DNA of 61,982 nucleotides, the filler included, from Sphacelaria rigidula (Eukaryota), in the NCBI GenBank assembly GCA_964200075.2. It is 9 parts of 9 records of this genome, joined end to end, with 100 filler letters (N's around TTAATTAATTAA, not from the genome) between each part and the next. Parts side by side here need not be neighbours in the genome. Positions count along the whole stretch, not along the records: positions 48,289 to 55,085 come from CAXNAA020018037.1; 8 more parts are not named here. One strand, 5' to 3'. Positions 13,799 through 59,835 of this stretch are shown here, piece by piece. The translations under genes were made by a program, and so were the position numbers. The number at the start of each line of letters is the position of its first letter. Position 1 is the first letter of the stretch. The notes under the pieces are model-generated. The model searched no databases. It was not told the DNA's origin and saw nothing but the letters and a program-made list of their open reading frames with translations.

Positions 13799-14419
13799 GC
13801 ATAGAGTAAAAACAAAGAAAGCATTCCCCCCCCCCCCCCCCCCCTATCGTAGGATGACTCATTTCGGCTCTAGCGCGATAAATACGTGAAAATTTGAATG
13901 CAAAAAATGTCTTCCCATTTGTTCAAGAGAACGTTCGGGATTGCTTCAACCGAGAAAAAATATCCGAGGGTCAGAACCCGGGGCTGGGTAGTCGCAGGAC
14001 CACCGAAAACTGGTCAGCTCGCAAGGCGTCCAATATTGAGTGAAGAGATTACTTTACTTCGGAATGTGGTGCGAATGCCTAGCTTCTCCTGATCTTCAAA
14101 CGTTGGGGTCAAACGTTCACTGGAATGAGCAGCGCCACGCGAAACCATTATTGAAAATGACCGACTACGAAAAAGTTACGAAAACCCCCTCTTTTGGCTG
14201 AAAACTATTGTACCGTAAATACATTCGAATACAACGGTATGAGACAGTCAGTGTACCATCCCTCGAAAGTTAACACAGTCTAGTTTTAGGGCAGGATTGG
14301 CGCACCTCGACGGCATGTTGATCTTGCACACATCTTTCATCGCGTCTCGACTATACTTTTCTCTATTGTCTGTACTGCTGAAGCAGCAGTGCTGCTGCTA
14401 CTCTACTCTACAATTCAAT

Positions 14420-19956: not shown

Positions 19957-20490
19957 ATTGACCTCGCATCCCTATGAAGCCAGGAAGGAGAACGCCGGGA
20001 TTGCGCCGGGCTAGGCTCGCAATCAATCACCAAGCGCGAAGCCCCAAAATGTGTTTGGCGAGTCGCATGAGGGGTGAGCTGCATCCTTCCAAGCTTGTTC
20101 GGCGCGAAGCGTACTGATTCTCTTGTATATAGCCGCCGCGCCCAGGTGGTGCAAAAGGTTCGACTCTCGATGCGTTGGGTTTTTTCTTCGTAGCATCTGA
20201 TTTCCACCGTGGAAAGCGTAAGAACGTGAGTAAACAAAGCAGTCGACTGAGTTTCTTTGACGTGAGTTGACGAGGGGAGGGAGTGCTGATAGTCATGACC
20301 CAATCCGCGAGACCGAAATGCAAGGCGTGTGCCGGGGAGAGATGGGTTGATCCCTTGAGACCACGGACTCGTCCCGAAGAAGGAGAGAGCTTCAAACTGC
20401 GACATATCAAAATAAACCAAACCAATATATAGATGTCAGCCTACAATGACTTGCTTCATTTTCTGGCATCACCACTTCCAGAGACAGCCA
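19957..20490 (+). repeat. Dispersed repeat family copy interrupted by a SINE
   Basis: Colinear with 52230-52470 once 20133-20432 is removed. Confidence 0.8.
20133..20425 (+). mobile_element. tRNA-derived SINE with a 7-bp TSD
   Basis: TSD TATATAG at 20126-20132 and 20426-20432; body matches 59542-59835; A/C-rich tail. Confidence 0.88.
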
Positions 20491-20697: not shown

Positions 20698-20785
20698 CCC
20701 CACCCCACGCCCCTCCGATCGGGGTGCTGGGGCAAGGCCCACCCCACAAAGGCAAACAACAAATGAGTCCCCCCCCCCCCCCCCC

Positions 20786-21688
20786 GGCAGCTGAGAGAAT
20801 ACTTGAGTGCTCGAAAACGACGAGTAATACAGCATTGAGAGCAGAGGTCGGAATGTACCCACTTAAAACATACATGAAAAAATTGAGATGGCAATGTAGC
20901 GTGAGGAATATGCAGGGAAAGAGATTGCCAGCTTGAGTTGATGGGGCTGTATGGAAGGCAATTACGAAAGGGCAGGCTGAAATAAGGTGGGATAAAGAAG
21001 TTGAGAAAGTAGGGAAGGAGACAGGAGGAAACCAAGACGTAATACCATCCAAAGGTGAAGGCGCGGGGTACGAGGCAAAAGGAAGAGACATGACGGAAAT
21101 AAGGGGAAAAGAAGCGCTTAGACGTAAAGTAGACGAGAAAGAACACCTGAAGAAATACGGGGTGTTGAGAGAGGGGATAGGAATGAAAACATATCCGCAC
21201 GGTCCAATGGACGCGGCGAAAAAGTTGAAACTGCAACTCCAGGTGGGGGACCTGGATCTGCCAGAAAGAAGAAAAGATTTACCAGAAGTCGAGAGGAGGA
21301 GGAAGTAGATGCTCAGAATTGCCCCTGTGGCAAAGCAATAGAGAGTAGAACTCATGCAGTCACAGAATATGAACTATATAAGGAGGAACGGGACGTGCTA
21401 GATGGAGGAATGCGGGACGTGAACCAAGGTGGCATGAAATTCTTTGATGCATTAGACAGTGAGGAGAAACGATGACTATACCGGGGGGTAAATGGTGGCC
21501 ACAAACGGCGAAAGAGGACAGGGATAAGATATGTAAAGGGTTTTTGTGTGCAATATATGGTGAAAACGTAATCATCACCTGAATATTGGAGGTGTCTCTA
21601 TGAGTAGCAACGGTGCTCCATCTCGACAGGGATGCGTGGTCAATGGTCAAACGGCTAAGGCAAGCAACAAAGGAGTACCCCCCCCCCC
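20786..21688 (+). mobile_element. 5'-truncated non-LTR retrotransposon (LINE) ORF2 C-terminus with an oligo(C) end
   Basis: TSNTALRAEVGMYPL, GIGMKTY..GPMD, CPCG..ESRTH zinc knuckle, VVNGQ..KASNK end, then a C-run; degenerate. Confidence 0.85.
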
Positions 21689-24984: not shown

Positions 24985-26510
24985 ATATAGGTGTTTGATT
25001 ATCCTTTTTTTTTTCGGGCGTGGTGCACACTGTGGCTGCAAATAAGTCGACATTAATAATAATTGCATTTTTTTTCAAGAGCACAGTAGCCCATGACACG
25101 TCGACAGCTGGGACATTTCCCACGTCCGGATCTAGTAGTTGTGCCCCACCGGGGAAGGGACTTTCGGACTGCAGTGGCAGAAAGGAACGCCCTTAGAAGG
25201 CTGACGTATTTGACGGACTTATCCTGGTATCTTTTCGTGCAGTAGAGGTAATTCTTTGTCGGTAACGGACTGTCTTCAGTGAGCATGATGAGTTCTGTCG
25301 TTTGGAAATTTCGGGTCTGAGAGCAAGATGCTATACGGTTTGGTACTATCTTTCGTTTCCGAGTTGTATGTTCTATTTAAACTAGTGCCAACTGCCAGCA
25401 CATGTATTGTCTGGCGTGCTGCGGTAGCATCATGTCCCCCCCCCCCCTACCCCAGTGTGTGTTTTTTTGTGCCTCAACCGGCCGTTAGCAACCGTGGACG
25501 TCTTCTTGCCTTGTTCCCAGGTGCTTCAGAATCCTAAGAAATGCGTTAGTTATGGGTAAGGGCGAGTGCGTTCATTGACGAGCCTGTTGTGGTCTATAGT
25601 AAGAGACCAGCGCATGTTTGCTTGTTCATGTGCGCTCCACTCGCAACAGTGCTTCTGTGGGTGGTCGGAAAAAAACAAGGTGCGCTCAACCCTTCAACAG
25701 GGGAGTGTTTGAGGGGAAATCTAGTGCAAGGAGCATCGGTCAGTGATGAGCAAGTCTCATAAAGTCGTCGTGGATATACAGTGGAGATTATTTTAGTTGA
25801 CACAATGTGACACGCTCGAAGTCGAACGGTGAGAGTGTTGGACGTGTGTGCGCGTGTGTTTATTCGTTTACCTAGACAGGTGTTGCGTTGTGTGCAGACC
25901 AAGACCGCTGGGTTCGTGCGCGATCACATGCTTTTGTGTGCTCGCCTTGCCAGTGTATTTGTTGTGCAGTTTGCGTATCTTATCACGCGCGTGTACTGCC
26001 GTTGATTGATGAAACACATGAAAGAAAACAATGGCTGTTGAGGATGAATACAAAATGCACGACTTTTTATCCAAAGTAGTTGATGCACGATACTCCCGGC
26101 ATGACTGTGCTTGTGCTTGTCGGGGAGAAGATTGTAGCGTAGGCAACAGCAGTGCAGCGGGGTTTACGAGTGCTGAGGAACTTGGGACACGATAATTTAT
26201 CCTCGTACCGCTTGAGGGGTCTTCCTGCATCACGCGGCATTTTTTTCAAATTTCTCCACGGGTCTGTCGAGAGAAAAATTCCGGACACGGAGCCCCCCCC
26301 CCTTCCTCCCGAGGGGCATTTTTTCGAAAATTGGCATGTTTTTTTTGTTTTTGTTTGTTGTTGAAAGAAATTGGTCAACCAGCACTGACAAAAACCGAAA
26401 AATCTGGTTGGCTTTGCGAGGTCCATATATCTGTTTCTTCTGCTCCCTGCCCGCCCTGTCCTTATGACCTCGAATGCCGGCAACGCTCACACACACCCAG
26501 AACAGTGTCT

Positions 26511-26570
26511 TCGTGAGAATGAGAGTAGAGCGCAGATTGGGAATGACTTTGATCATTCGCTTCAACTTAG
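26511..26570 (-). repeat. Short dispersed repeat, about 60 bp
   Basis: Reverse complement aagcgaatgatcaaag.ca.tcccaatc..tcta.tctca.tctcacgaa also at about 34506 and 36237. Confidence 0.65.
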
Positions 26571-27495
26571 CCATTTTCCCTTTCCGCGTGTGCTTTTCTT
26601 TACCTCTATCACTGCCATGTGCTCACAGCTGCACGTCGATATCCTATTCAGGGATGGCCAGGGCCTCAGTGGCAAGCTACTATGGAAAGAATATCAGACC
26701 TTAAGAAGGGGCATCTCGGAACTGAAACGATTCATTCATGGGTTGACCGCTTTTCACTTTCAATCGTATCCTCTGCTTTGAATCTTACGAACATTGTTCA
26801 TGTACAAGACACGAGCGTACGGTAGCGACAGCCTGTAGCCAAAGTAGCAACATTATCTCACGCCTCGCTAAATGCGCCCGGACTAGTGGTGGGTAGTCGA
26901 AGCACACGACACGGAACATGATCCCCTAAAGGTGATCGTGGTAGGTGATGAGCTTGGAGGGGCGGTGTGTCCGTCATCTCAGCGGTCCCCATGCCAAGGG
27001 TCCCTGTATTCGGCAGCTGACCATATCCGCCAAGGCCTCGGCAATAAACTAGGGAACAGCAGGCGAGATATCCCCCGCCATCCCCCCCTCAAAAACTTGA
27101 ATTTTTGATCTTGCGGCCTACGCATCCCGAAACAGGTTTTTGACGGACCCTCGGCTTCTCTCAGTTTTCCCTTATATGAATACTTTTCCCCGACTTGCCC
27201 GAAATTAAAAACGACCGAAAAAATGTGCGGACTCGAGGTCATGAAACTGACTTTCAATCGATCAAATACTAGACACTCGATCTGGCGGAAACTTTGTTGA
27301 ATGTGTAAAGCAATCAGATTTTACCCGTCTCCATAAGACACGGTCTAATCGGAGATGAGATGTGAACAAAAATCCCATCACCATGAACATCGCACTAATT
27401 GATGGAGTAACGCATATTATGGTGGCGGTGTACAACGAACAGTAGTTTCGTGAGATTGAGAGTCTAAGATACGATTGAGAGTAGGCTTTTCAAGA

Positions 27496-34566: not shown

Positions 34567-34950
34567 TTTGGTATATCTCCTTCTTGCTTCTCGCAGGTCC
34601 CACCCGGAATCGCAGTTTTATTTTTTTCGCCATGTCCATGGGGCCATGCAAATATGTTTTCATCCTCATCCCCTCTCTCAATCCCCCCTACATTTTCAGG
34701 TGTTCTTCCTCGTCTACTTTGCGTCTGAGCGCTCCTTTTCCCCCTATTTTTATCACATCTCTTACTTTTGTCTTGTATCCCGCGTCTTCACTTATGGACA
34801 GTACTTCGTCTTGGTTTCCCTGTATATCCTTCCATACTTTCTCGACTTCTCCAGCCCACCTTATTAAGCCCGCCCTTTCGTATTTTCCTTCCATACAGCC
34901 TTATCAACTATAGCTAGGGATCATTTTCTCTATATCTTCTTTGAGCTATA
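34567..34950 (-). mobile_element. Internal LINE ORF2 fragment, same family as 20786-21688
   Basis: ALRRKVDEEEHLKM..GLREGMRMKTYLHGPMD peptide homology. Confidence 0.8.
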
Positions 34951-35060
34951 TTGTACGGGAACCGCAGGTAAGGTTACGTACCGAGCGCACCCCTCGTATT
35001 TAGCGGAGTATCCCATACCGTGGTATGCGTGAGTAATGTAGGTATGAATTTTGAAAATAC

Positions 35061-37039
35061 CAGGGGTCTATACGTTACACGTTCACGTTTACGTTCACGT
35101 TTACGTTCACGTTTACGTTCATCTCGTAAAAAGTATTTAACGTTCACGTTACGTTACGTTACGTATGTCACGTTAAATAAATTTGAACGTTACGTTAACG
35201 TTTCATATGAAAATTTAACGCTACGTTCACGTTACGTTCATCACGTAAAAATATTTATCGTTACGTTTCGTTACATGTAACGCAATATGAAACGTTTCAA
35301 TGTCACGTGTAACGTCTAATATAACGTTACGTTGACACGTGTAACGTTCGAATGTAACGTTTCGTTCTGTGAATGTCGCGGCTCATTTACCAGTGTTTGA
35401 GGCGTCGTCATGTGTCGTTTAACGCGTGATGTTACCGTGTACGTGACGCTGACGGTGGCCCGTCGGCTAGTTCTCACGCATAAAGAAAACTCTATAAAAA
35501 ACGCGTTTTCTGATAACCCACTTCACATGTGATCAGAAAACGCGTTTGAAATCCCGCCGCACGCCAACGCACCCTCCAGCCCACGACAGCAGCCATGGGT
35601 GGCTTGGCTGCCATAAACACTGCTGTCGCTGGTGCTCGCGGGTAGTCAGCGTGTTGCTTCATTGTCCTTCGCTCGCCAGTATCATGGTAGCTCTTTACGC
35701 CATGAGAACAGCACAAGGCAGGGTCGATGGCGAGTGCTGTACACTCTGTGTAGTATGCACAGATAGCATTGTCGCTCGCATTTCAGGTCTGTGCATGCAG
35801 CGTGATGCGAACAGCACTCGCGACGCAGTACAGACTGCCCACACACCCAAGACTTGTAGAGACAGGACCGCCCTGACCGTACACACAAGACCACAGTATA
35901 AGCAGAAGTGCTACTGCTGTAGTATCTATAGGACTTGGTAGCCTGGGCAATCTGTACTGTATTCGAGTGCTGTTCGCAACACGCTGCATGCAGACATGAA
36001 CTGAGCTACATTGCTGCGCAGCCAACCTACATACAGAGTGTCTGACAGCACTCGTCATGGACCCTGCCCTGTTTCAGTTCCGAAATGCCCCTCCACGAGA
36101 CCTGGTATGCTTTCTGTAGTAGCTTGCCACTCAGGGCCTTGATATCCTTGAGTAGGATATTGACGTGTTGCTTGTAGCACACGCCAGTGATGGAGGGGAG
36201 AAAACGTGCACACGGAATAAATAATTGGCTGGGTTGAAGCGAATGAATAAAGCCACTCCCAATCAGCGCTCTAATCTCAATCTCACGAAAAAGTTTACAG
36301 CCAATGCATACAATACAGTAGTGTGTACTCTTGTCTGTGCTTTCCTTTCAGTCAAGTACTACCGTGCAGTGAAAAGTACAACCGTCACTTCTACAGTCAG
36401 TTGTTAGTACAGCAAGGCGTTGTTCGTATTGATCGTCTTCCGTCACGTAGCCCATGTATTGCTCAGGCCATGCATCACAACAGTAGTACAGACAGTCAGT
36501 ACGGACCGTACACCACGACACGACAGCAGAGTGCTGCGTCTATCTCGCGCGCCCCGGAATTTGAAATCATGCCTGTACACCTCATAGAGAACGCGATGAG
36601 CACCGCGTTTCCAATTTTGACAGCGTGTCGATATCGTGAGGAAGGCGTTTTACAATAGTACCATATCTATATACCATGGTCATTCAAACTCACTCGTGTT
36701 AATTGAAGCACCATCTTCCAGGATTTTTTAATTCATTGCAAACTTGAAGTTTCACCACTGCATGTGACGTGTTCATGACGTTTCATGTAACGTGTAACGT
36801 AACATATAACGTTACGTGTAACGTGTAACGTCTAATGCACGTGTATCGAGTAATAGACGTTACACGTTACATGAAACGTTTCCTTAGACGTGATTTGAAC
36901 GTTTGGGCAATTAAACGTTCACGTTACGTTACGTATGTCACGTTAAAAAATATTATGTTACGTTAACGTTACGTTTCGGCCAAAACGTAACGTAAACATA
37001 ACGTGTAACGCTGTGGCACGTGTAACGTGTAGACCCCTG
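35061..37039. mobile_element. Non-autonomous hAT-like DNA transposon
   Basis: TIRs CAGGGGTCTATACGTTACACGT / ACGTGTAACGTGTAGACCCCTG; about 300-bp ACGTT/GTAAC-rich subterminal arrays at both ends; no transposase ORF. Confidence 0.8.
35712..36072. repeat. Internal long inverted repeat (nested MITE or hairpin)
   Basis: Arms of about 150 bp (ggcagggtc.atg.cgagtgctgt..tgcatgcagcgtg.tgcgaacagcactcg..agtacaga) around a loop of about 60 bp. Confidence 0.75.
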
Positions 37040-41391: not shown

Positions 41392-41699
41392 GTCTTATGA
41401 CTATGGCATGCATGATCATGAGTACACCCTCTCGCTCACCCGTGTACCTTGGCTGTGGGGAATATGCATCTACAAGAGTATCTACATCATACAGTGATCG
41501 CACCTCAGTGGAAACCCGCGAGGGATATGCCCGTGGTGCAGTCCTACACCAGAGTGAAGCTTGTGTGTGAAGCTTGTGGTATCGCTCTTCCACGGGGAGA
41601 CGGTGCAAGCTTTATGAAGAGCAGAAGCTGAAGTCGAATTGAGGATCGGAGTGGTGGAAGTGGGAAGTGAGAACGAGGGGGGGCCTCCTCCCAACATCA

Positions 41700-48070: not shown

Positions 48071-48188
48071 CTGAATGTTGGAGGTATCTCTTTTAGGAGC
48101 AGGAACGGTCCTCCGTCCCGAAAGGGATGCGTGGTCAATGGTCAAACGACTAAGGCAAGCAACAATTGAGTACGCCCCGCCCCCCCCC
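48071..48188 (+). mobile_element. Short LINE 3' end with an oligo(C) tail, at the contig end
   Basis: NVGGISFRSRNGPPSRKGCVVNGQTTKASNN* then gtacgccccgcccccc. Confidence 0.8.
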
Positions 48189-51470: not shown

Positions 51471-52190
51471 TGTTGAAACCAAGTTTGTGTTCTGTTTAGA
51501 TGGGGTATACCCGAAAGTGGGGTATTTTTGGTTTTATCATAAACCGTACCAAAATGTGTACCGAACACTTCGGTATGGTCCGGCAGGGTATCGAGCCTTG
51601 TTCCAAACAATCCGGTATGGTTCGGAAGGGTATTGGCCTTCAAAATACCTCTTTTATACCCTTTGTATATACTGTATCCCAATTTCAGCCGGTATACCGG
51701 TATCCCCGGTAGAACACAACCTTGCATGTGTCTGTTCTTCGAAGCAAACGTTTAGTTCAAACCCGCAGTTGGAAAGGAAAAAATCGCAAGGCAGGAAGGA
51801 GAAGTAGCGTATATCGAAGATCATCTTGGAATGCTGCAATCGAGGTGGCTTTTTGCGTGTGTGCACATGTCGATGCGTGTACGAGGGAGTGCCCGCGGTT
51901 CAATGATACTGTATACAAAGCGTATCATTTGGATACGGAAAGCCGGTTGGTGCATTGAATGTCTCACATGCGGTAGAAAGGTCAACGTTGATACCGACTG
52001 TGATGTCAATATCGTTTTGTTCGTGCCTTGGCGTTTCGAGGGAACCAGACTTTTTAGGTTTTTACTCCATTTGGACTCGATTTCTTACTTAACGGGATTT
52101 TGGCTTGCGTTCAATCCCCGCGACGGGGTCAACCTTAATGATAGCTGATGCGATCGGCATCATGACTTTGTTTTTGCGTATACGCATATG

Positions 52191-52480
52191 GGGGGGTGTT
52201 TTCATGATCATGCATGCCATAGTCATAAGACCATTGACCTCGCATCCCTACAAAGCCGGGACGGAGCATGCCGGGTTTTCGTCGGGCCAGGCTCGCACTC
52301 AATCGCCAAGCGCGAAGCGCCGTGGTGAGTCCGGCGAGTCGCATGAAGGGAGAGCTGCATCCTGCTAACACTGTTCGGCGCGAAGCGTACTGGTTATATT
52401 GCATTTGGATGACAGCTTACAATGAGTTGCTTTATTTTGTGGTATCGCCACTTCCATAGACAGCCGCGGTTTATATACAC
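52191..52480 (+). repeat. Uninterrupted copy of a dispersed repeat (family also at 19957-20490, about 52715-52760, and 41392-41430 on the minus strand)
   Basis: catgatcatgcatgccatagtcataagac and attgacctcgcatcccta..gttcggcgcgaagcgtactg shared. Confidence 0.8.
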
Positions 52481-53023
52481 TGCCTCATGGGTGTCTGACC
52501 ATTTAAACACTACGTATTACGATCATCCCCATTATGCGAAGTTGAGGTTCTCCCACGCCGCACAACATGATCTCGCTCGACGACCATCATGGTTACCGCA
52601 AAAAAAAACGCAAGCGCGCAAAGCAATTGGTAACCTGGGTGCCTCGCTCAGGCAGTGAGTGGCGTGTTTAATAGCGTCATCGCCAACCGACACCAACCCC
52701 ATCGGGGGTCCGCCCCTACAAAGTCGAGACGGAGCACGCCGGGTTCTCGCCAGACCGGGCTATACGTATATGGGGGGGGGCTCAGGCCTTTCCGTTCAGT
52801 TGCACCTGGTGTTCATTTAGTCGTGTCCTTGGTTCAGAATTAGGAGGTTGTGATGTGATCGTATTGTGCGCGTGCGCAGGTATGGGAGGGCTGGCTTTTT
52901 TGTGAATCTATTTCTTGCCAGCATTTTTGTATTAACGTTATTCTGGGTTTGAGCTGAACGCCCGAAGCAGAGCCAACTTTGATACGTACCGGTGATGATT
53001 CGTGCGTGAAATACGGAAATAAT

Positions 53024-53510
53024 CGTACTCATTTGTTGCTTGCCTTAGTCATTTGACCATTGACCACGCATTCCTTCCAAGGCGGAGTACCGTCCCTTCC
53101 CCTAATAGAGACACCTCCATCATTTGGGCGCTCATTACGTTTGTTCCATGCATTACATACCTTCTCCCCTTCCTGTTTCGCCGATTGTAGCCATCTAGCT
53201 CCTAGCATAGTGATGGTGTTTTCGCCGCTGTCTAATGCGCCAAATGATTTCATGCCACCCTCGCCTGACCCCCCCATTTCCCCCTCTAACACGTTCCATT
53301 CCTCCTTAAATAGTTCACATTCTGCCACTATATGAGTCCTACTCACTATTTGCAAAAAAGGGCAATTCTGCATCTACTGCCCCCTCCACCCGACTACTGG
53401 TATACCTCTTTCTTTCCGGCAGGTTCAGGTCCTCAATCGCAGTTTCATTTTTTTCGCGTAGTCCATTCAGCCATGCAGATATGTTTTCACCCCTATCCCT
53501 TCGCTCAACC
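53024..53510 (-). mobile_element. 5'-truncated LINE ORF2 C-terminus
   Basis: DLNLPERKRYTSSR, SRTHIVAECELFKEE, WNKRNERPN..CVVNGQMTKASNK*. Confidence 0.85.
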
Positions 53511-54582
53511 CTGAGGAGGGCGGGGGAGGGGGGGAGCACGTGCTCATGTTTACTTGGACCTGTGATAAGCTCGAGTTCTGTTGTTCAAATTGACGGAGAA
53601 GCCCAGAAAAAATATATTTTTTGAGTAAAAAAGTGTATGTAACTCATGCAAAAAAATTACACCTCTTTCTTGAACAGAAAACCTGTTTCGTTTATCTTAT
53701 GGTGGTACACAACCAGGAGAAAGGAATTTTGTTCCGTTTTCGCGCCGCGTTTGAAACACGAGTTCTTTTTCTTGAAGGCGCCATGGGAGGGCGACAATAA
53801 CCACGTGGCTGGTATTGTTCGAGGACTGAGAATCGCAGGTATCAATCCGACGACATGCATATTAGTTTTCACCAGTAAGCTCTGCGCTCCCGATGGATGA
53901 ATGAATATGAGCACCCCGAAACCGGATGTCCAACGTCGTGAATCATTTCAGAGCCGAGTGTTTGGACCCACCACTCAAAACCAGGGAAGAAGAGAAGCGT
54001 GGAATATGACAGAAGCAGCTGGAGATTTTGAAAAGTTTGGAACTCGCATACGTTCGCGCATTCGCAGAACATGTACATTTTTTTTTCCACCACACCATGG
54101 ACAATAGATTACATTGTCACAAAGTGTACTGCGTACAGTGTGGAATCTGTTGTCTATTGTAATGGACGCAATAGTCTATAATGTACGCAGTATAATTTAT
54201 AACAATATATTCTTTTGTCATCATCCAGCGTGTGTTTTTTTTACGCGGCAGCAGCATGGCCTGTGCAATAGCTGGAAAATACCTAAGATCAGTTACTTCT
54301 TCTTCGCATTTTGTATATATGTACCGGCATGATACTCGTGTTCATGGACTTCTCTCGCCTAGTCGCTTGCTGAGAATTTTCGCGAAAATCAGAAAGTTGG
54401 CGCATTTTCGCACCAAAAAGCAGGAGAAACCGATGCACACGGTGGAAAATATGCGTGCAACAATGGCGATAGAAAAAAATGTACTACGTCAAGTATACAT
54501 CTACTGCTACTATCAACCAATAGTTACTTTGACGCGGTACATCTTTTCCCTATTGCGACTGTTGACCACATGTTGTCCAGGG

Positions 54583-54652
54583 GGCGTACTCATTTGTTGC
54601 TTGCCTTTGTCGTTCGACCATTGACCACGCATCCCTTTCGAGACGGAGCACC
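54583..54652 (-). mobile_element. 70-bp LINE 3'-end insertion with an 11-bp TSD
   Basis: GTTGTCCAGGG at 54572-54582 and 54653-54663 flank the family 3' terminus. Confidence 0.85.
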
Positions 54653-55085
54653 GTTGTCCAGGGTGTGAACTCTTCCGAAAACGCGTACCAACCTGCTACA
54701 GACCAACGGAAGTCGGCGCCAGGGTAGTCTGTTTCACACGTAAATGCTTGATATGCGTCCTTGTCCTCTCCAATGCTTCGACGAGAAGTTTCGGCGAGGG
54801 GCAAAATTTCAAAAATGCTTCGAATCCATTTCTGACAGTAACAATATCAACATTCGAGCATAAGGTGATGCCAGAGCATTTGTTGACATCGAAGATTACG
54901 ACATGCGTCCGTTGCATTTTCACGGTAGGTTTTGCATCCTTCTCCGTTGCATGGGTCTCAATAGTCAGCGCCAAACCGGCGAACCTGCATTCGTCCTAGT
55001 GAAATATCTGACTTTCATATCAAACTCAAAAGTGATGATGCAAGCCCCCTCGCCCCCCCCCCCCCTAAACCAGCTCCAAAACTGT

Positions 55086-59541: not shown

Positions 59542-59835
59542 CCGCCGCGCCCCGGTCGTGTAGTAATGGTCCGACTATCGCCATTGGGATGGAAAGAACG
59601 AGGGTTCAATTTCCGATGCGTTGGGAGTTTTCCTCGAACGTCTGATTTCCACCGTGAAAAGAGAGAGAGCGTGAGTACACAAAATAATCGACTGTGTTGG
59701 TCTGAAGTGAGTTGACGCGGTCCGGGGGAGTGCTGACCCAATCCGCGAAACCAAAATGCAAGGCGTGTAGCGGGGAGCGATGGGTTGATCCCTTGAGACC
59801 ACGGACTCATCCCGAGAAGGGGGGGGGGTTCAACG
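59542..59835 (+). mobile_element. tRNA-derived SINE
   Basis: Colinear with 20133-20425 and with the head at 6727. Confidence 0.85.

Follow-up and report, generated by a model that had tools for sequence, protein, structure and literature searches.

LINEs with a C-tract at the 3' end have already been described. In the Ectocarpus repeat table of 2025 (PMC12477816, suppl. 3), the RTE-X elements RTEX-1_Ec32 and RTEX-2_Ec32 consist of a single endonuclease-reverse transcriptase (EN-RT) ORF, measure 5.5–5.9 kb, and are annotated with a '(C)n 3'' terminus and a 'C-rich' target site duplication (TSD). The same table contains the non-autonomous RTEX-N1, of 604–607 bp, with 60 bp of common 3' end at 83%. 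The rows and passages on RTEX-1/2_Ec32 do not separate target from tail, propose a way of priming or mention a 66-nt class. RTEX-1 is also reported for Saccharina, in passages that carry no tail details (PMC4421812). In other RTE-related LINEs and SINEs, the TSD begins with the base that is repeated in the 3' tail, and pairing between tail and target has been proposed to aid priming (PMC6007223); the table there lists tails such as (GTT)n, (CAA)n and (ACCTTT)n, the TSDs mostly start with T or A, and no C-homopolymer occurs among the rows. 3'-end recognition of the stringent kind through stem-loops and slippage on tail repeats have been reviewed (PMC3747384), and the poly(A)/T-tract rule of L1 is summarized in both sources (PMC6007223, PMC3747384). 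A literature search outside subscription journals, Repbase, Figshare and bioRxiv supplements found no paper on C-tail priming or on a 66-nt class. The new elements of the present analysis are the evidence that separates target from tail and an unexplained 66-nt class.

The window, that is, the whole stretch of 61,982 nucleotides of Sphacelaria rigidula DNA analyzed here, is composed of nine contigs of ~6.8 kb with N linkers between them, taken from a source assembly of 244 Mb in 27,214 contigs. Five LINE termini lie on three of these contigs, with the last base of GAGT at 20768 (+), 21676 (+), 48171 (+), 53027 (-) and 54588 (-), and differ mutually by 1–2 bases. The copies terminate with ..GAGTACG and a C-run, and the LINE stop codon is positioned 5 nt from the element end. 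The relevant features are the following:

54583–54652, minus strand: 70-bp insertion made of the LINE terminal 68 nt and two extra Cs, a member of the 60–72-nt 'mini' class
54572–54582, minus strand: 3' copy of its TSD, which starts with CCC on the element strand
54653–54663, minus strand: 5' copy of its TSD, 3 nt of which are microhomologous with the element
54585–54651, minus strand: 67-nt terminal domain, common to the non-autonomous family, with a predicted closing helix and two predicted hairpins
20747–20785, plus strand: 23-nt 3' fragment with C17 after it, the run into which the next copy inserted
20786–21688, plus strand: 5'-truncated and broken copy of ~0.9 kb with C11 at its end, whose ORF C-terminus has a CPCG..H..C-type motif
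48071–48188, plus strand: truncated copy of ~104 nt, whose C-tract reaches the contig end
53024–53509, minus strand: diverged, truncated copy of ~0.49 kb with a C-rich 5' flank and no 3' C-run
34594–34953, minus strand: internal ORF fragment of the LINE, lacking the terminus
52190–52404 (ends approximate), minus strand: SINE-like copy of the non-autonomous partner, with a homologous terminal domain and a C-run
41392–41429, plus strand: 3' end of the partner family, located where a contig begins, with a C-rich tract after it

The original prediction had assigned the ORF end KASNK* to all five copies. All five termini are present, but exact KASNK* is found only in the two minus-strand copies, as the plus-strand ends translate into ..KANNK* (20768), ..KASNKGVP with a mutated stop (21676) and ..KASNN* (48171). 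A C-run directly after the terminus, claimed for four of the five, stands, the exception being the copy at 53024. The 70-bp insertion is flanked by GTTGTCCAGGG at 54572–54582 and 54653–54663, 70 bp apart; the repeat is therefore real, but its final 3 nt, AAC when read on the element strand, match the element, and the 11-bp TSD that had been proposed amounts to 8–11 bp. Its target holds C3 and its tail junction C5. As for the C-rich 5' flanks also proposed, C17 does precede 20786, and this C17 is the tail of the earlier 23-nt copy. Very probably, the family is an RTE-X-type LINE that inserts at C-tracts, is recognized through its 3' domain, primes by a nick in the G strand and pairing with Cs, and has a truncation hotspot at the domain edge.

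The 3' terminal 23-mer has 3,181 exact matches in the genome, whereas its reversed control has none. CCCC follows in 2,489 of the 3,181 matches and A, G or T in 137, and many of the non-C cases inspected show one other base and then a C-tract. The sequences past the C-runs are unrelated between copies, which rules out an internal C-run followed by a common UTR. Poly(A) was searched for on the 3' side, and a run of A≥8 within 100 nt was found in three of 68 copies and A≥5 in one of 60 3' flanks; the poly(A) tail and A-rich TSD start that characterize an L1-type retroposon are thus not what these copies display. The statement that the family has essentially no 3' UTR and no poly(A), made from the five copies of the window, consequently holds across the genome. 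About one fifth of the first 100 listed termini are located near contig ends, an observation suggesting that the family and its C-runs break the assembly.

The composition of the tails bears on where the RNA ends. The sequence 3' of the stop shows no evident terminator or poly(A) signal, and the tails, with pure C-runs of 0–29 after the terminus, are often interrupted C-tracts resembling genomic targets. Both observations suit an RNA that has no oligo(C) end and reads through the donor C-tract into the flank, the nicked G-strand priming internally on the C-stretch. We regard this as a real possibility, somewhat short of even chances. Against it, a search for 3' transduction among 168 copies gave no clear case, and the 12 common downstream matches resemble other repeats or tandem copies. 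This possibility departs from the main explanation only in the position of the RNA end, and both may hold together.

Long genomic copies encode a reverse transcriptase (Pfam RVT_1, E 5e-21) and give a weak match, below the cut-off, to an endonuclease domain (Exo_endo_phos, E 0.035). Every long copy examined is broken, and two copies span ~5.6 and ~6.0 kb. An intact EN-RT homologue of 1,360 amino acids from another record (P0001) has KASNK at its end, contains the domains PF00078, PF14529 and PF03372, and is 72% identical in the RT and 67% at the C-terminus; this protein and a second homologue, P0002, each show a single ORF. The nearest named matches are Ectocarpus proteins (59% in the RT), pointing to a brown-algal host, and the best solved relatives in a PDB search are L1 ORF2p and R2 only. 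A metagenome scan with the C-terminal 187 residues revealed no relative. The copies are 5'-truncated and dispersed; their 3' end is constant and their TSDs vary, as is usual for LINE copies. Together with the RT, the weak endonuclease match and P0001, these traits uphold the LINE identity originally proposed. As judged from these sequences, the family appears as an APE-endonuclease/RT LINE of ~5.6–6 kb accompanied by a ~600-bp non-autonomous partner with the same last 67 nt. In two copies (L210 and L194), the 5' UTR contains a tandem array of ~63-nt units, of which 8 and 4 were detected.

The RTE-X clade is defined by the grouping of RTs with those of reference RTEX elements in a phylogeny. 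The present element is most likely RTE-X-type, an assignment based on its match to a published description rather than on a tree. It resembles RTEX-1_Ec32 and RTEX-2_Ec32 in its (C)n 3' end, C-rich TSD and thousands of copies, and the ~5.6 and ~6.0 kb spanned by two copies accord with the 5.5–5.9 kb of the Ectocarpus elements; all the features that can be compared with the description agree (PMC12477816). Likewise, the partner resembles RTEX-N1_Ec32 and RTEX-N2_Ec32 in its length of ~600 bp, ~60 bp of common 3' end, C-rich TSD and occasional tandem arrangement. The RTE clade proper, represented by RTE-1/2_Ec32 with a (CAA)n 3' repeat, differs, as C-runs follow the terminus here. Mammalian L1 has the same combination of APE endonuclease and RT, and the same target-primed reverse transcription (TPRT) with pairing of tail and target. 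By contrast, the element described here uses C/G instead of A/T, has nearly no 3' UTR, and possesses a specific 3' domain common with its partner, as in the stringent type. Insertion at (C)n, as well as (CA)n, is also known for the Chlamys Penelope-like elements (PMC8557442), and tandem copies are found here, yet we assign a negligible probability to an element of that kind. Chlamys elements belong to another subclass, with a GIY-YIG endonuclease, a telomerase-related RT and pseudo-LTRs, an identity ruled out by the protein evidence: the terminus closes an APE-EN/RT reading frame, for which the nearest solved structures are those named above, and the copies have TSDs.

The insertion sites were analyzed in an ordered set composed of the first 30 listed matches and 40 of the next 59, after skipping 19 that were seemingly near contig ends. 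Removal of two non-C matches as duplicates left 68 copies, 60 of them with usable flanks, a set biased to young and short copies. Upstream of the 5' junction, the first 25 nt contain a run of C≥5 in 42 of the 60, as opposed to 4 of 60 at positions -125 to -101 and 2.4% of random 25-mers of the window; on the downstream side, it is present in 53 of 60 3' flanks. The corresponding counts for G≥5 in the two flanks are three and none of 60. Duplications with at least four non-C matches after compression of the C-runs occur in 25 of 60 copies and in 5% of shuffled pairs, and 26 of the 35 best repeats scored with no requirement for an initial C begin with C. A first TSD scorer, too conservative, placed 17 of 60 copies above the 99th percentile of the null, and was superseded by a strict rule that demands at least five unique bases duplicated after the tract, and a C before the unique part. 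Over all sets, this rule identified TSDs in 24 of the 123 copies that could be evaluated and in 0.8% of shuffled pairs. All 24 targets hold at least C3, and the duplication ends at a median of 7.5 nt beyond the tract. The predicted insertion at C-tracts is therefore confirmed, with TSDs that are enriched in C at the tail junction.

The strict set also allows the Cs of the target to be told from those of the tail. Short targets (≤6 C) have more Cs at the tail junction in ten of ten cases, with a median gain of 4 and extremes of C3 to C13 and C3 to C14, whereas long targets (≥10 C) have fewer in eight of nine, and the lengths of target and tail are uncorrelated (rho 0.12); post-insertion slippage of the homopolymer or assembly error could blur such comparisons of run length. 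Because short targets gain Cs and long ones mostly do not, the element both enters existing C-tracts and contributes Cs of its own, the latter as originally suggested. An element with no tail, whose C-runs derive wholly from the target, would need an endonuclease that selects C/G-tracts by itself and slippage that alters the run lengths later. Eight of the nine long targets indeed require no added Cs, the window contains many C/G runs of at least 8 (15 and 9), and an earlier and cruder measure of the tracts, flawed and superseded by the strict rule, was symmetric, with 20 longer and 18 shorter. We nevertheless find this account distinctly improbable, as it leaves the gain of Cs in all ten short targets, and the independence of tail length from target length, to be accounted for.

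Five of 63 copies directly follow a family-like terminus and are, therefore, inserted inside an earlier C-tail. Contigs of public sequencing runs show, at the plus-strand G-runs, consensus loose ends on both sides, with 441, 298, 97 and 88 records at 54580; three of the four runs come from one study that may include the source sample, and do not constitute independent support. No empty-site joint was found in the four runs among the joints listed for positions 54300–55000. In two loci (L147 and L184), copies in opposite orientation are directly adjoining, either head-to-head or overlapping. A telomere-like TTAGGG filler close to the 5' junction (15 nt or less) is present in two of 135 copies (L035 and L037), compared with 0 of 135 in a control stretch, too few to interpret.

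For the main explanation, the following sequence of events is envisaged. The LINE protein would bind the folded 67-nt domain at the 3' end of the RNA, common to the ~600-bp family, in a stringent type of recognition. The endonuclease would nick the G strand inside the G-tract or at its edge, and the freed 3' G-end would pair with a short run of Cs that follows the domain and prime reverse transcription, sometimes with slippage. A second nick would fall ~7 nt beyond the tract, so that the duplications comprise part of the C-tract and ~7 downstream bases. New C-tails would then serve as targets for later copies, giving rise to tandems. Mammalian L1 also reuses new tails as targets. The 65–67-nt 5' ends would arise if the RNA were cut or trimmed at the edge of the protein-bound domain, or if the RT stalled there. 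Priming on the G-strand through an oligo(C) RNA end, which had been put forward for this family, is what we infer, and the extra Cs might be due to slippage or to transcription that runs on through the C-tract of the donor copy itself. This model of nick and pairing draws on general knowledge of TPRT and on the proposal made for RTE-related tails (PMC6007223).

The non-coding partner family has common sequence up to 606–610 nt, ends in C-runs as well, and has its last 67 nt in common with the LINE, with 55 of 67 positions identical (82%). Identity is concentrated in the stems: 33 of 34 predicted stem positions are identical and 22 of 33 unpaired ones (p 0.001), although the fold used in this comparison was taken from the LINE and the test leans in its favor. 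The folding energy of the 67 nt is no better than that of shuffled sequences (z -0.8 to +0.4; -1.1 for one copy), two-sided compensatory changes are absent, and the closing helix, displaced by an upstream hairpin, has a probability of ~0.004 when 100 upstream nt are included. The terminal domain is probably folded. Residues encoded by it (G.VVNG) persist in distant homologues (P0001, P0002, P0004 and P0018), indicating that coding and RNA-level constraints overlap. A third repeat, at 52600–52770 (-) of the window and in L083, L127, L132, L149, L150 and L154, carries the leader and first hairpin of the partner and then diverges, leaving the domain unfinished; several of its copies begin directly after C-tracts.

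A large class of copies consists of little more than this domain. The 5' start is positioned 60–72 nt from the end in 36 of the 60 ordered copies, to which the insertion at 54583–54652 is added. These minis are LINE-type domains with no head beyond, whereas the shortest element listed in the Ectocarpus supplement measures 188 bp (PMC12477816). They make up about 40–60% of the sampled copies, and ~43% if all the skipped or unusable copies were long. Among 73 copies shorter than ~130 nt, 34 start at 65–67 nt and two at 73–112, and contigs of the public runs display a matching junction peak at 54650–54651 and tandem joints. This pile-up of 5' ends at 65–67 nt most likely marks a hotspot of truncation where the domain begins.

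A separate minimal non-autonomous retroposon, transcribed, processed and re-inserted, might produce the same peak, with its 34 starts at 65–67 nt against two at 73–112. In its fuller form, the ~66-nt copies would be self-propagating: containing only the RT-binding RNA domain, they would be released, together with a templated C-stretch, when host or tandem transcripts are cleaved at the 5' border of the domain, and the RTE-X protein would re-insert them into G/C-tracts. Exact domains extend 6 nt further upstream in 562 of 1,705 genome-wide cases, compared with 18 of 22 long copies and 983 of 1,532 members of the partner family. The minis are also nearer to the consensus (1.4 versus 3.5 mismatches in 37 nt, p 0.01), and 19 of 55 minis and 4 of 28 mid-length copies carry one variant, as do fewer than 3 of the 26 long copies. 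On the other hand, collapse or contig breakage of young long copies in this 27,214-contig assembly could inflate the share of minis and their apparent youth, though not the sharp peak. The variant is present in mid-length copies as well, and P0001 and P0002 carry the residue that it encodes, so that the donor could be a LINE subfamily of more recent origin. In addition, the 5' ends of the minis scatter over several bases. A separate retroposon of this size is consequently rather unlikely, and its self-propagation by the route outlined is similarly doubtful. If true, the ~66-nt domain would represent the smallest cis signal that directs target-primed insertion to C-tracts, and the copies, lacking a promoter of their own, would rank among the smallest mobile elements. 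The sharp 66-nt class is suggestive of a compact cis element, a candidate minimal tag for the recruitment of an RT.

The data provide genome-scale support for the notion that the pairing of tail and target during target-primed reverse transcription is not confined to A/T, and that a LINE can run on C/G tracts while replenishing its own targets. Such a LINE may help to explain the richness in C/G runs of genomes of this type and the breaks in their assemblies. The published record is a table entry (PMC12477816), and the separation of target from tail, together with the 67-nt domain, makes the mechanism directly testable.

Other sequences are associated with C-runs in this genome. A short motif is found after C-runs at many unrelated sites, and an inverted form before them (window positions 13844 and 55238; L011, L035, L085, L163 and L164). 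The pair could represent both ends of a different element that targets C-tracts and bears short inverted repeats; an unclassified element with C-rich termini is listed for Ectocarpus (PMC12477816). Further unclassified dispersed repeats have several copies in the window, at 20157–20489, 59542–59820 and 52408–52465, and at 26501–26728 and 36071–36289.
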